DNA of 64,000 nucleotides from assembly GCA_965216315.1 (NCBI GenBank), contig CBDCFN010000016.1, forward strand, positions 480,001 through 544,000, in the 5' to 3' direction. The notes beneath the pieces were generated by a model. It ran no database searches. It saw nothing but the letters and a program-made list of their open reading frames with translations, and had not been told where the DNA came from. The position numbers were made by a program, and so were the translations under genes. The number at the start of each line of letters is the position of its first letter. Within the stretch, counting starts at the first letter, position 1. This DNA is from a bacterium. Lineage in GTDB: Bacteria; UBA10199; 2-02-FULL-50-16; JAJFLM01. Positions 17,273 to 21,290 of this stretch are shown piece by piece.

Positions 17273-17935
17273 ATGAGGGACCGAACTCGCCTGGGAGCGG
17301 GTGGCTTTTGGATGTTAAGGGTACTGCTCGTTGGTGTGTTCAGTTGGTTGATGACCGGAGGATCGGCTCAAGCCACGATGACGCTGCCGATGCGGTTTGA
17401 CGAAATTGTCCGGCAGTCAGGACAGGCATTTGTCGGGCGCTGTGTCTCCCTTGACTATGGGATCGATGAAAACGGGATCCCGGCGGCTTATATAGAATTT
17501 GAGGTGAGCCAGCCGATCAAAGGTGTTTCAACGGACCGGGTCACTTTGAAGCAGTATGGACTGATTCCCCAGCCTCAGGCTGACCATCTTCTGCCCGATG
17601 TTGGCTATTACGAGTCCGGTATCGTTTCTTTAAAGACGATGCAGGGTTCCGGCGGTTCCTATCGGATCGACGAAGAGCTCGTCTTATTCCTCTATCCGGC
17701 GAGCAAACTTGGGTTTAGCTCGCCGGTTGGTTTTGGCCAGGGTCTCTTCAGGGTGAGACGGACCCATGATGGGCGCGAGTATGTTGCCAATAGCTTTCAA
17801 AATGCTTTTCTCGGTCGTATCGGAAAACCCAATGCATCTGTTTCAGCCTATCAAAATAATCATTCTCAACTGACGAACGCATTAGAACTAGATTCTTTGC
17901 TCGAGTGGGCCTCACGTCTCCGGGAGGGGTCATGA
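17273..17935 (+). CDS. Secreted TIMP/NTR-like OB-fold protein (copy 1)
   Basis: AAGGAG RBS; signal peptide ending AQA; FVGRC..FEV..IKG..EELVLFL..GFSSPVG..QG.FRV, paralogous to 19329-19961; fold is inferred. Confidence 0.7.
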   Translation: MRDRTRLGAGGFWMLRVLLVGVFSWLMTGGSAQATMTLPMRFDEIVRQSGQAFVGRCVSLDYGIDENGIPAAYIEFEVSQPIKGVSTDRVTLKQYGLIPQPQADHLLPDVGYYESGIVSLKTMQGSGGSYRIDEELVLFLYPASKLGFSSPVGFGQGLFRVRRTHDGREYVANSFQNAFLGRIGKPNASVSAYQNNHSQLTNALELDSLLEWASRLREGS

Positions 17936-19329
17936 AGCCCGTCTTGGTAAGAAGTATGTTGATTGTGGTTCTTATCTCAACGGTAGGTGCTGGGCCGATT
18001 CTTGTCGATACGGTGATTACGGGCGATGCCGTTGTTTGGAAAGATGGTCTTGTCACGTACAATCCTGAAACGACGACTGACGGGGTGGGAGGAGAACTTG
18101 GACGTTTAAGCAATGAAGAAGCACGCGGACTAATCACGGAAATTTTTGATAAATGGTCCAATGTCACCTTGCCGAGCGGCACTGTTGAGGTGAGCACTGT
18201 CAACTTGACGGTCGAAGAAGGTGCCAGCCTCGGCAATGTCGATACGAGCAATCTGAATGATCATTTTACTTACTGTCCGCCGACGGAATTCTGTCCCGAT
18301 ACTGATCCGCCTTTTATTCGCGGAAGTGCGCGTAGTGGAGAGAGTCCACTTTTATTTGATTCGGATGGGAGCCTGACCGATATGATACTCGGTTCGGGCG
18401 CCAGTAATAACATTCTTGGTTTTGCCGGCCCGCGAGTCGTTGCGCGCGAATCATCGAACCTTTTTATCGTTGAGGCGCAAGCCGTCTTGAATGGACGCTT
18501 TATTGATTGTGCTCCAGATGCCGATGCGGCGGATGCCTGTCAAACGCCTGAAGTTTCGGTTGATGCCTTCAAGGCCGTTGTATTCCATGAAATGGGACAT
18601 TTCCTTGGATTGGATCACACGCAAGTCAACCTTGACCAGCTCAATGCCGCTTTATCGGGAGATTCAGCAGCTGCGAGTCACGTTGCGACTATGTCCGCGC
18701 TTTTTGTTGGGAAAGAGCAACTAGAACCGCACTATGATGATAAGGTAGCGATTAGTACGCTGTATCCGTCAGCGATTTTTTTGAGCGATTTTTGTGCAAT
18801 TACCGGGACCGTGTTTCAGTCCAATGGGTTGACAGCCGTGCAAGGTGTTAACGTGATTGCACGCCATGTTGGTGATCCATTAGTTGAAGCCACAAGTTTT
18901 GTCTCCGGGTCGCTTTTTACCGGGTCGCAAGATTGTTCTGTTGCCACCGGGGGGTTCGTATTGCGAGGGATCCGGCCGCGTTCAAGTTATACGCTCGAAG
19001 TCGAGCCTATTTCACCGATATTTCAGGGTGGGTCGAGTGTGGAGCCCTGCGATCCGCCGCAAGCGGGTTTTGATGCTCAAGTCGCAACGGGGACGTTTTC
19101 ATGTGAAAGTGGGGGGCAAGATGTTACGGTAGGAACGGCTCAGGGAACCGACTTTGTTACGACCAAAGGCCAAAGCGGTAGCGACGGATCAAGCGGAGCT
19201 GCGGGGGCAGGGAGCGGCTGTAGCTTGAATCCAGAGGGTCGTAGAAGTTCCTCTTTCCTTTTATTAGGGGTTCTTCTATTATTGTGGAGGTTACGAAGTC
19301 GGGTTTTCATAAAAAAAGAAATGGGGTGA
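17932..19329 (+). CDS. Secreted matrixin-like metzincin with MYXO-CTERM-like tail (copy 1)
   Basis: HEMGHFLGLDH zinc motif, Met-turn ATMS, beta-rich domain, GSGCSL-TM-RLRSR tail; ATGA overlap with upstream stop. Confidence 0.88.
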   Translation: MKPVLVRSMLIVVLISTVGAGPILVDTVITGDAVVWKDGLVTYNPETTTDGVGGELGRLSNEEARGLITEIFDKWSNVTLPSGTVEVSTVNLTVEEGASLGNVDTSNLNDHFTYCPPTEFCPDTDPPFIRGSARSGESPLLFDSDGSLTDMILGSGASNNILGFAGPRVVARESSNLFIVEAQAVLNGRFIDCAPDADAADACQTPEVSVDAFKAVVFHEMGHFLGLDHTQVNLDQLNAALSGDSAAASHVATMSALFVGKEQLEPHYDDKVAISTLYPSAIFLSDFCAITGTVFQSNGLTAVQGVNVIARHVGDPLVEATSFVSGSLFTGSQDCSVATGGFVLRGIRPRSSYTLEVEPISPIFQGGSSVEPCDPPQAGFDAQVATGTFSCESGGQDVTVGTAQGTDFVTTKGQSGSDGSSGAAGAGSGCSLNPEGRRSSSFLLLGVLLLLWRLRSRVFIKKEMG

Positions 19330-19961
19330 TGCTTGTGCGTCGTTTTCTAATTGTTGGAATAGCTATTTTAATAGTGAGTTTTTCTGTCGGTCAGTCCAAG
19401 GCAACTATGGTCCTGTCGGTTAATCTGGAACAGATGACTGAGACAGCGGACCGGATTTTTTTAGGGACCGTGCAGTCTGTCGAAGATGCCTATGATTCGG
19501 ATGGGCGTTGGTGTCAATTTGTGACATTTTCCATCATTGAAACGTATAAAGGGAATCTTTCTTCAAATTTAAAGATCAAACAGGTTAATTCAAAACCAAC
19601 AGATACGGACGATGAGACTATCGTGCGCAGCACGATGTTTCAGGGGGTTCCTCAGTATAAAGTAGGTGAGGAGGTCGTTGTTTTTCTTCACGGCGACAGT
19701 CCAATAGGTTTTACGAGTCCGGTTGGGCTCAGCCAGGGCGCGTTTCGGGTTGTCAAAGATGACAATGGCGGTAAGAAACTTGTGAATGGGGCCGGCAATT
19801 TAGGGCTCTTTAAGAAGATGAAGGCGACTCCCGCACTCAAGGCTCAGGGGATTGATTCAGTACGCTTCCAGGCATTGAGTACTTCACCTAAGGATCTTTA
19901 CCTTGATCAAATGCGTTCGATGCTAAAGGCATTGACTCAAAAGAAAGCGGCAAAGGAGTAG
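19329..19961 (+). CDS. Secreted TIMP/NTR-like OB-fold protein (copy 2)
   Basis: TGATG overlap; signal peptide ending SKA; ADRIFLGTV..FSIIETYKG..GEEVVVFL..GFTSPVG; fold is inferred. Confidence 0.72.
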   Translation: MLVRRFLIVGIAILIVSFSVGQSKATMVLSVNLEQMTETADRIFLGTVQSVEDAYDSDGRWCQFVTFSIIETYKGNLSSNLKIKQVNSKPTDTDDETIVRSTMFQGVPQYKVGEEVVVFLHGDSPIGFTSPVGLSQGAFRVVKDDNGGKKLVNGAGNLGLFKKMKATPALKAQGIDSVRFQALSTSPKDLYLDQMRSMLKALTQKKAAKE

Positions 19962-19967
19962 CCCAAC

Positions 19968-21290
19968 ATGCGTATGAAGCCCATTTTTTCCTTATTTCTG
20001 CTCTTGGTTGCATTCCCTGTGACTGCCCTGGGATATGGTCCCAATGTTATTACCAGTAGTGGCATCGTGACATGGCAGCTGCCGGTCATTATTGATGTTG
20101 AGGGTGACCAGATAAAAAACTGTGATGGTGGCGCGACAGTTGATTTAAGTAATCACATCGCTAATGCGGCAAGTATTTGGACTGGAGCACCGGAAACAGG
20201 CTTAACGACACAAGTTCGTACTATCACGAGTGGCGGGAATCCACTGAGTGTTGACGAAACGAATTATTGCGACGTTATGTTTGATCAAGGCTCTTGTCAA
20301 TTTGGGGGGAATCAAAGTGGTCCCGCCGACGGTGGTTTTAATCCCATTGTTTATGATGAAGACGGCGCGATTACTGACCTGTTCTTTGGTGTCAACGCCA
20401 AGCAAAGCACGCTGGGATTTGCCGGCATTGTCTTGCGTGAGACGGGATCACTCAATGCTGCCAAGGGTGAAGGCGTTATTAACCTTTTTTGCATGGATCC
20501 CTGTGCCGGCTCCTCTTGTACGGCGACTTTTTCTGCGAATGATGTCCTCGCCTTTGTTGTCCACGAACTTGGTCATTTTTTCGGCATGAATCATACTCAG
20601 GTCAACTTTGATCAAACTAATGAAAGCTTTACCTCGACAATGTTCGCCGTATTTGATCCGGATTCAGTAGCGGATATCACGACATTAGAACGCGATGACG
20701 AGGTTGGAATTGCTGATTTATATCCGAATGGAGGCAATGATCTTGACGATAATTTTTGCGCGGTGACGGGGACAGTTCTCGATGAAAACGGGGATGAGTT
20801 TCAGTGTGCTAATATCATTGTGCGTAATACGAATACGACTGGGAGTAAGAATCTTGCCGATGCCATAAGTTTTGTTTCGGGAGGAGATCGGGAAGGTGGC
20901 ACTGCGGCGAGTGGGCGTGGGGCATTTACGGTGCGCGGTTTGGCCCCGGGGGAAACCTATCAAGTAACGGTCCAGCAAATTGATACGACCTTCCCGTTAA
21001 ATGCTTCCTCTTCGGGTATTGTCCCGTGCAACGGAGGGAACGGAAATCCGACGCCTCCTGAGTTTACGTCGCAAACGCTGAGTGAAACGGTCACGTGCCA
21101 GGCGGCCGGTTCAAGTCTCGTTGCGGTTGGAAATAGCCAGCAGCTGACGGTCAGTGAAGGGGATACTATCACCCTTTCCGATATAACCCTCACAGACACG
21201 AATAAAAATGTGGCATCTGGAAGTGGGAGCGGCGGAATTGGTGGTGGCGGGAGTGCCGGTAGCAGTAGCGGCTGCAGCCTCATTCGCTGA
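19968..21290 (+). CDS. Secreted matrixin-like metzincin (copy 2)
   Basis: AAGGAG RBS, signal peptide, HELGHFFGMNH, Met-turn STMF, ends in Gly/Ser linker-GCSLIR. Confidence 0.88.
   Translation: MRMKPIFSLFLLLVAFPVTALGYGPNVITSSGIVTWQLPVIIDVEGDQIKNCDGGATVDLSNHIANAASIWTGAPETGLTTQVRTITSGGNPLSVDETNYCDVMFDQGSCQFGGNQSGPADGGFNPIVYDEDGAITDLFFGVNAKQSTLGFAGIVLRETGSLNAAKGEGVINLFCMDPCAGSSCTATFSANDVLAFVVHELGHFFGMNHTQVNFDQTNESFTSTMFAVFDPDSVADITTLERDDEVGIADLYPNGGNDLDDNFCAVTGTVLDENGDEFQCANIIVRNTNTTGSKNLADAISFVSGGDREGGTAASGRGAFTVRGLAPGETYQVTVQQIDTTFPLNASSSGIVPCNGGNGNPTPPEFTSQTLSETVTCQAAGSSLVAVGNSQQLTVSEGDTITLSDITLTDTNKNVASGSGSGGIGGGGSAGSSSGCSLIR

Follow-up and report, generated by a model that had tools for sequence, protein, structure and literature searches.

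Two tandem pairs of a predicted TIMP-fold protein and a propeptide-less matrixin-like protease in one bacterial operon

We found a four-gene operon at positions 17,273 to 21,290 of a 64,000-nucleotide stretch of contig CBDCFN010000016.1 (positions 480,001 to 544,000 of the contig; this whole stretch is called the window below), which belongs to assembly GCA_965216315.1 of a bacterium of the GTDB lineage UBA10199. The operon alternates between two secreted proteins predicted to have the fold of the NTR module and of the tissue inhibitors of metalloproteinases (TIMPs), here named A1 and A2, and two secreted matrixin-like metzincins, here named P1 and P2. The locus is a clean instance, with two tandem cognate pairs, of a widespread and unannotated bacterial system that couples a matrixin with a partner of predicted TIMP fold, and the idea was partly anticipated by the Mtz-Tim pair of Listeria. 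We consider that each A protein is probably the cognate inhibitor of its P protein, binding the protease and keeping it latent, and give this reading a probability of about 0.6.

All four genes lie on the forward strand. A1 (17273-17935) is an open reading frame (ORF) of 220 aa, matched by the profile of its family with an E value of 5.3e-61, P1 (17932-19329) encodes 465 aa, A2 (19329-19961) 210 aa and P2 (19968-21290) 440 aa. The stop codon of A1 and the start codon of P1 overlap as ATGA (17932-17935), with a GGGAGGGG stretch just upstream, and those of P1 and A2 overlap as TGATG (19327-19331). Between A2 and P2, the TAG stop (19959-19961) is followed by a gap of 6 nt, and the ATG of P2 at 19968 has an AAGGAG sequence 9 nt upstream. 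Shine-Dalgarno-like purine runs precede both protease genes. A1 and A2 shared 27% identity over 179 residues (E 1e-19), and P1 and P2 shared 29% identity over 428 residues (E 1e-38). Therefore, A1-P1-A2-P2 is one tightly coupled operon which arose from an old, now diverged, duplication of a two-gene unit. The initial annotation of this DNA had described the same four ORFs, the same junctions and a diverged tandem duplication, and the DNA and the pairwise alignments bore this out.

The structure of A2 was predicted with AlphaFold (AF2) from an alignment of 17 sequences, giving a predicted local distance difference test score (pLDDT) of 84.0 and a predicted template modelling score (pTM) of 0.75. 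The model was composed of a signal-peptide helix, a short helix, a beta-barrel and C-terminal helices. It was compared by VIA-align, independently of Foldseek, with 48,161 representative chains of the PDB. The best 13 rows were all NTR modules, including the NtA domain of agrin (Z 9.5), N-TIMP-3 (Z 9.0, 115 of 121 residues) and the NTR module of PCOLCE (Z 8.2), while generic oligonucleotide/oligosaccharide-binding (OB) folds reached a Z of at most 6.1. Further matches of this search were the C345C domains of C3, C4 and C5 (Z 7.0 to 7.9), TIMP-1 (Z 7.0), the NTR module of meteorin and a hookworm netrin-like protein; TIMP-2 compared with the model gave a Z of 7.4. In a second look at the best 50 rows, all 50 were NTR modules, among them agrin NtA (Z 9.8), N-TIMP-1 (3ma2_C, Z 9.1) and N-TIMP-3 (Z 9.0). 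N-TIMP-1 was superposed on A2 over 115 of 119 residues with a root-mean-square deviation (rmsd) of 2.9 Å, model residues 26 to 206 lying on chain residues 301 to 424. The predicted first mature residue of A2 (model residue 26) was thereby aligned with chain residue 301, the first of the N-TIMP-1 chain, which is Cys1 of TIMP. The 185 residues of mature A2 all align to the N-domain or NTR module alone (model residues 26-210, C-terminal helices included), and there is no counterpart of the disulfide-rich C-terminal domain of TIMPs.

Foldseek placed TIMP-2, NtA and TIMP-1 in the top rows for A2 with E values of about 1e-3. By language-model features, the named clusters nearest to A2 were TIMP, NtA and NTR (scores 0.82 to 0.89), which are to be taken as leads only. 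Compared with a viral structure library, A2 returned only weak generic OB-fold rows with TM scores of at most 0.42. Potempin A, an OB-fold inhibitor discussed below, is not among the structural matches listed for A2, and this carries no weight as evidence of difference. The fold comparison proposed in the initial annotation thus came out in favour of NTR/TIMP-fold proteins, and an NTR/TIMP fold is predicted for the A proteins.

The P proteins carry the zinc-binding motif of metzincins, HEMGHFLGLDH at residues 219-229 of P1 (18586-18618) and HELGHFFGMNH at residues 199-209 of P2 (20562-20594). A Thr-Met pair 15 to 16 residues past the third histidine was invariant in 17 aligned relatives (T224 and M225 in P2, the Met-turn codon lying at 20640-20642), so that the HExxHxxGxxH motif and the Met-turn first noticed in the sequence are present in both proteins. 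The Pfam model Peptidase_M10 gave a borderline match to P1, which covers no more than 22 residues and whose score of 24.0 bits (E 4e-5) equals the cut-off of 24 bits; P2, with 22 bits, stayed below it. The structure of P2 was also predicted with AF2 (pLDDT 72.9, pTM 0.78). In the VIA-align second look, the best 50 rows were all catalytic domains of matrix metalloproteinases (MMP-1, -2, -3, -7, -8, -9, -12, -13, -14 or -16) or of bacterial karilysin, with Z 10.9 to 11.8, about 150 of 160 residues aligned, 16 to 21% identity and an rmsd of about 3 Å. The Foldseek TM scores were 0.60 to 0.64 on the target.

These matches start at model residues 24 to 33, right behind the signal peptide of P2 (residues 1-22). 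The mature protein is predicted to begin with Y23-G-P-N-V, and the YGPNV N-terminus is conserved in relatives. Because the catalytic domain begins directly after the signal peptide, no propeptide is left room for in the model, and no cysteine switch of the PRCG type was found in the sequence of P1 or P2. The P proteins are thus supported as MMP-like catalytic domains without a propeptide, in agreement with what had been read from the sequence at the outset. Behind the catalytic domain of P2, a beta-sandwich domain follows from about residue 264; a match to the Pfam model CarboxypepD_reg in P2 stayed below the cut-off (21.3 bits).

The A family is large and unannotated. With an E-value limit of 1e-3 it comprised 6504 cluster representatives, and with one of 1e-10 it comprised 1630; the source names listed among 89 A-family matches were all "hypothetical protein", the family has no Pfam model, and NCBIfam gave no family for A1 or A2. 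The phylum of the window is represented in GTDB by 93 species genomes of a single class, 63 of them of high quality. Members of the A family were found in 65 of the 93 (50 of the 63 high-quality genomes) and members of the P family in 88 (63 of 63). All of the 29 loci taken from other genomes of the phylum have an A gene that is either followed by an HExxH protease gene on the same strand or fused to one.

Outside the phylum, 185,579 species genomes were scanned with a pattern derived from an 8-row alignment, which gave 138 matches including 126 relatives; a pattern built from A2 alone gave 69 matches and no relative among them. The relatives were mostly Acidobacteriota, together with records labelled Binatia, KSB1, Thermodesulfobacteriota, Gammaproteobacteria/Burkholderiales, Verrucomicrobiae, Troglogloeales and Clostridia. 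The 80 loci kept held 81 A genes. A gene for an HExxH or P-family protein lies directly downstream of 74 of them, six stand at a contig end and one has no such neighbour (74 of 75 assessable). In length, the proteases encoded downstream run from about 400 to 1342 aa, and their C-terminal architecture varies; therefore the element they share is the catalytic domain. A tblastn search of a plasmid collection with A2 gave no match. The A and P families are thus linked almost without exception across many phyla, and the survey of adjacency and fusion settles in the affirmative whether A proteins go with metzincins in other genomes.

Trees were made from 29 A-P pairs of six families of the phylum (the two pairs of the window and those of loci L003-L017 and L122-L133; L018 and more distant loci were set aside). 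In the P tree, 14 rows fell into a P1-type clade and the other 15 into a P2-type clade, both clades having 100% support in the Shimodaira-Hasegawa-like approximate likelihood ratio test (SH-aLRT). In the A tree, the 15 A proteins adjoining P2-type proteases grouped in a single clade, row for row the same set (SH-aLRT 91). The same split in both trees supports the two pairs as cognate, and we conclude from it that the unit was duplicated as a pair before the families diverged and that each A stayed with its own P. Matching trees are what partner-specific recognition would predict, though shared descent alone would also predict congruence within each clade. The genome (2.96 Mb, 98% complete) contains exactly two A and two P genes, all within this operon. 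Hence the earlier view of one dedicated partner for each protease fits this genome, but it does not extend to relatives with A-P-P and A-P-P-P arrays.

For both A proteins, the signal-peptidase sites were set by the A-x-A rule and the family alignment, and cleavage is predicted. The signal peptide of A1 would cover residues 1-34 (17273-17374) and leave a mature N-terminus T35-M-T-L-P from 17375 (AQA|TMTLP); that of A2 would cover residues 1-25 (19329-19403) and leave T26-M-V-L-S from 19404 (SKA|TMVLS). Both predicted N-termini thus read Thr-Met-x-Leu, as had been proposed. The conservation of the family begins at the predicted cleavage site: among 162 members, Ala at -1 was found in 134, Val at +3 in 117, Asn at +7 in 127 and Leu at +8 in 139. 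At +1 there were 83 Thr and 17 Ser. No lipobox Cys stands at +1 in any of the 162 members, and two lipobox-like strings sit inside the hydrophobic core, off the cleavage site. A1 and A2 are predicted to be Sec-exported, soluble, single-domain proteins that are not lipoproteins.

The most conserved element of the family is a loop, in A2 S124-F139 (S-P-I-G-F-T-S-P-V-G-L-S-Q-G-A-F; 19698-19745, forward strand), between the fourth and fifth strands of the barrel (model strands 115-120 and 138-143). The copy in A1, S144-F159 (S-K-L-G-F-S-S-P-V-G-F-G-Q-G-L-F; 17702-17749, forward strand), aligns with it. In A2 numbering, G133 and G137 are kept in all 162 members, Q136 in 160, G127 in 159 and P131 in 147. 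K74 and G75 are also strongly conserved (158 and 161 of 162, respectively). Mature A1 and A2 have one cysteine each, which agrees with the initial annotation that the N-terminal cysteines of TIMPs are missing. The cysteine of A1, C57 (17441-17443), lies in the first barrel strand and belongs to a lone Cys column, filled in 111 of 162 members, for which no partner Cys is conserved; A2 has Val at this position.

In four genomes, the two proteins were found as single ORFs (L032 2971-5373, minus strand; L033 1401-3665, plus strand; L034 3230-5311, minus strand; L037 782-2833, minus strand), with the order protease, Cys tag, membrane helix, basic cluster, signal peptide with an A-x-A-type site, and A domain. 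The predicted topology of these ORFs is that of two secreted proteins joined via a helical hairpin in the membrane. In these fusions the A part would be exported anew by the second hydrophobic segment, and its N-terminus would still be released by signal peptidase; we infer that the topology may reflect selection for a free A N-terminus. A Ser/Thr kinase gene downstream of the fusions L032 to L034 was considered as a further component of the system, and no link was seen. Where A seemed absent in the phylum, we found tandem protease arrays headed by a divergent A-like ORF. Arrays of this kind, with two or three proteases behind a single very divergent A-like ORF, occur in one family of the phylum (loci L118, L119, L120 and L121); three examples of the ORF gave E values of 1.3e-5, 0.022 and 3.3, and the value of 3.3 is not significant alone. 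One A partner may serve several proteases in such arrays.

The two proteases differ at the C-terminus. P1 ends in a putative sorting tag (19207-19302, forward strand), made up of a Cys motif (GSGCSL), a hydrophobic segment and a basic cluster, and it resembles MYXO-CTERM; the match to TIGR03901 was just under the 20-bit cut-off (18.8 bits, E 0.0016). The genome has one gene for an Rce1-like/CPBP protease, the type of enzyme proposed to process MYXO-CTERM-like tags in the accessible part of a preprint by Haft (10.1101/2023.06.07.544157). P2 has the motif G-C-S-L-I-R at its very end (21270-21287, forward strand), with no membrane segment. Ends of this type, G-C-S-L-(I/V/L)-R, with four to five residues past the Cys and no membrane helix, were seen in 13 of 17 aligned rows. 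From its sequence, the short tail of P2 resembles a CAAX box and may be what is left of a MYXO-CTERM tag.

Compared with the animal TIMP-MMP couple (MEROPS I35 and M10A), the system is alike in the predicted OB barrel of A2 with its N-terminal segment and two C-terminal helices, in the MMP-like catalytic domain of P2, and in an N-terminus predicted to be freed by signal peptidase. It is unlike in that the A proteins have no detectable sequence similarity to TIMPs and no conserved cysteines or disulfides, correspond to the N-domain only, and are encoded in an operon with the protease, and in that the P proteins have no propeptide. The likeness in predicted fold extends to the wider NTR modules, namely agrin NtA, PCOLCE NTR and the C345C domains of C3, C4 and C5.

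A related bacterial pair already described is Mtz-Tim of Listeria monocytogenes, in which the protease cleaves its partner and the two thus interact physically, a precedent for contact between A and P. The accessible text of the paper (PMC8235301) describes a secreted metzincin that adjoins a secreted TIMP-like protein (by Phyre2), the pair being conserved across many Firmicutes, and its authors came upon no earlier record of bacterial TIMP-like proteins. A secreted metzincin next to a TIMP-like predicted fold is what both systems share, and the Firmicutes homologues of Tim have, according to the same text, type I signal peptides, as A1 and A2 do. The differences, again as far as that text goes, are that Tim follows Mtz whereas A precedes P, and that Listeria Tim is a lipoprotein encoded in a mobile-element locus under a CI/Cro switch, whereas the A-P operon lies among housekeeping genes; Tim is likened here by its description only. 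Our search of the open-access literature (PMC and bioRxiv) for bacterial TIMP/NTR homologues gave only the Listeria paper, and nothing on the Gram-negative A family.

The potempins of Tannerella forsythia, which have been studied best among the bacterial analogues, offer a precedent for the gene order. In the part of the potempin paper available (PMC9890683), the gene of each lies directly before that of the KLIKK peptidase it inhibits and is co-transcribed with it, the stop codon overlapping the start codon or lying no more than 5 bp from it; the ATGA overlap of A1/P1 and the 6-nt gap of A2/P2 are similar, and the inhibitor ORF would likewise be directly upstream. Potempin A (PotA) is there an OB-fold inhibitor of the MMP-like karilysin that acts via loops ("bilobal") and not via its N-terminus, and is otherwise unrelated to TIMPs. 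Karilysin is among the best structural matches of P2. The potempins are described in the same text as lipoproteins of 98-132 residues, whereas the A proteins are predicted not to be lipoproteins and to form a full NTR module.

A further system is AprI/Inh of Pseudomonas, Serratia and Erwinia, a periplasmic inhibitor encoded with a secreted metzincin. The free N-terminal segment of AprI/Inh fills the active-site cleft in a TIMP-like manner. Unlike the A proteins, it is an eight-stranded barrel and not an NTR module, and it acts on a serralysin that leaves the cell by type I secretion.

According to the reading we favour, A1 and A2 would each bind the metzincin encoded directly after and hold it latent. 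P would be exported without a propeptide, and removal of the signal peptide would already yield the N-terminus of an activated MMP. Since the propeptide is lacking, it would fall to A, translated in a coupled manner from the same mRNA, to confer latency in the periplasm and en route to the cell surface, to which P1 would be sorted by its MYXO-CTERM-like tag. How A would inhibit is a separate question. In a TIMP-like mode, which we regard as possible but tentative, the freed N-terminal segment of A would occupy the active-site cleft with its alpha-amino group on the zinc, and the SPVG..QG loop would lie beside it in place of the disulfide-braced ridge of TIMP. In A, residue 1 of the fold is predicted to carry a free alpha-amino group, because the A-x-A site lies directly before the conserved segment, the lipobox Cys is missing and the structural alignment starts there. 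The loop S124-F139 of A2 would sit where the E-F connector in TIMP structures is disulfide-bonded to the N-terminal segment. If this placement holds, the N-terminus and the loop of A together could be the equivalent of the TIMP ridge. The main alternative to the N-terminal mode is a loop-based mode like that of the potempins. The broadest version of the proposal, which we find rather doubtful, is that the couple of TIMP and MMP did not originate in animals; the A family, with its thousands of clusters in many bacterial phyla, would then consist of true, disulfide-free NTR/TIMP homologues that inhibit propeptide-less matrixins via a freed N-terminus, and the bacterial and animal pairs would share ancestry and mechanism.

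Several findings weigh against this line of interpretation. The Z of 9 to 10 for A2 is only moderately above the VIA-align background, in which the best Z is typically 7 to 8, and residues 21-30 of the model, around the predicted cleavage site, have low confidence (mean pLDDT 58). The Pfam TIMP and NTR models gave no match for A1 or A2 (E ≤1) or for 46 relatives (E ≤0.1), profiles of the A family made from 17 and from 150 sequences matched no TIMP/NTR chain among the PDB sequences at E 10, and phmmer was likewise blank. The initial annotation had argued that the A proteins run in the same register as mature TIMP-1. The motifs on the bacterial side are present at the mature positions it gave (A15-D16-RIFLGTV, YKG and EEVVVF in A2; S15, IKG and EELVLF in A1), but the TIMP-1 strings could not be confirmed by sequence, and because no sequence method ties the A family to TIMP or NTR, the motif-by-motif resemblance has no statistical weight. 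The cysteines and disulfides of TIMPs are all absent among the 162 members, in which only a single unpaired Cys-rich column occurs. Residue +1 is hydrophobic (L, M, A, I, V or F) in 56 of the 162, so Thr is not conserved there, and the top conservation of the family is in the loop and not at the N-terminus, which would equally suit a potempin-like loop mechanism. One fusion, L035 (2937-4913, minus strand), joins a different metzincin (HELGHALGLGH) directly to a C-terminal A core (profile positions 41-144) that has neither signal peptide nor N-terminal segment, and this is counted against the N-terminal mechanism. In some relatives, a single A accompanies two or three proteases (A-P-P, A-P-P-P). 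The accessible part of PMC2871463 indicates that NTR modules outside TIMPs are mostly not inhibitors. The accessible part of PMC8235301 presents Listeria Tim as a substrate, cleaved by Mtz about 50 residues in, and it reports no inhibition assay.

The cleavage of Tim in that paper can also be read as support for a different role, in which A is a detachable folding or maturation helper, that is, a propeptide in trans which P needs for folding or stability after Sec export, with inhibition incidental and transient and with A degraded on activation. The missing propeptide of P, the position of A as the first and translationally coupled gene, and the near-obligate linkage of the two families would all suit such a helper. 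Even so we regard it as unlikely. MMP catalytic domains fold without their propeptides, NTR folds are not known to act as foldases, two or three proteases can stand in an array behind one A, and the direct C-terminal fusion L035 does without the N-terminal segment of A. Instead of a regulator, A could also be a working partner or product of P, either an NTR-type module that recruits substrate or anchors the protease, or an active agent that is processed and released, as the accessible text on Listeria proposes for Tim; there the phenotypes need both proteins and the protease activity, and the cleaved TIMP-like fragment is released (PMC8235301). Most NTR modules, such as agrin NtA, C345C and PCOLCE, are binding modules and stand as the best or equal structural matches of A2, and the metzincin of L035 bears its A core as a C-terminal domain. 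However, A is paired with proteases of about 400 to 1342 aa with diverse C-termini, which points to the shared catalytic domain as the target. Conservation from the signal-peptidase site onwards, together with the internal signal peptide in the fusions, suggests that a free N-terminus matters, and a passive adaptor would not need one. We therefore hold a working partner or product to be quite improbable. The last explanation, that A is an unrelated periplasmic OB-fold protein which merely shares the operon and resembles TIMP by a generic OB match, could appeal to the moderate Z-scores and the lack of sequence homology to TIMPs. It is close to refuted by the linkage in 29 of 29 and 74 of 75 cases, the fusions, the congruent trees, and structural matches that span the whole NTR module including the C-terminal helices (model residues 26-210) and outrank generic OB folds.

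The neighbours of the operon are housekeeping genes, with ribF upstream and ispG, proS and pyrF downstream. A divergent gene for an S41 peptidase of the tail-specific type (14386-17217, minus strand; 943 aa) lies 55 bp upstream of A1 and encodes a PDZ domain and a CARDB-like region near the C-terminus. The pyrF product (24188-25189; 333 aa) has an orotidine monophosphate (OMP) decarboxylase domain that stops at residue 228, and its last ~100 residues form a low-complexity tail rich in Pro, Glu and Ala. A scan for promoters and terminators found four promoter-like sites against 4.0 expected from shuffled sequence and ten terminator-like sites against 5.1, counts close to expectation, with none of the sites usefully placed at a gene boundary. 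The GC skew was above 0 in all 2-kb blocks of the window (1-64000), and the cumulative skew climbs steadily.

The available part of PMC9890683 regards TIMPs as proteins of animals and as the sole endogenous proteins that inhibit MMPs. The present analysis adds a large unannotated bacterial family with a predicted TIMP/NTR fold, whose genes nearly always stand ahead of one for a matrixin-like protease that lacks a propeptide. Karilysin and other MMP-like enzymes of bacteria have been discussed as xenologues. If A proteins do act as inhibitors of their partners, this would explain how such proteases can be kept latent in bacteria without a propeptide. The family would then also offer a large natural collection of metzincin inhibitors that are small, free of cysteine and paired in specificity, for which the two cognate pairs of this operon suit a specificity experiment, and the origin of the NTR/TIMP module would become testable. 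Should the reading of shared ancestry be true as well, bacteria would have had the enzyme and its inhibitor paired in one operon, and this pair would share ancestry with the eukaryotic system.

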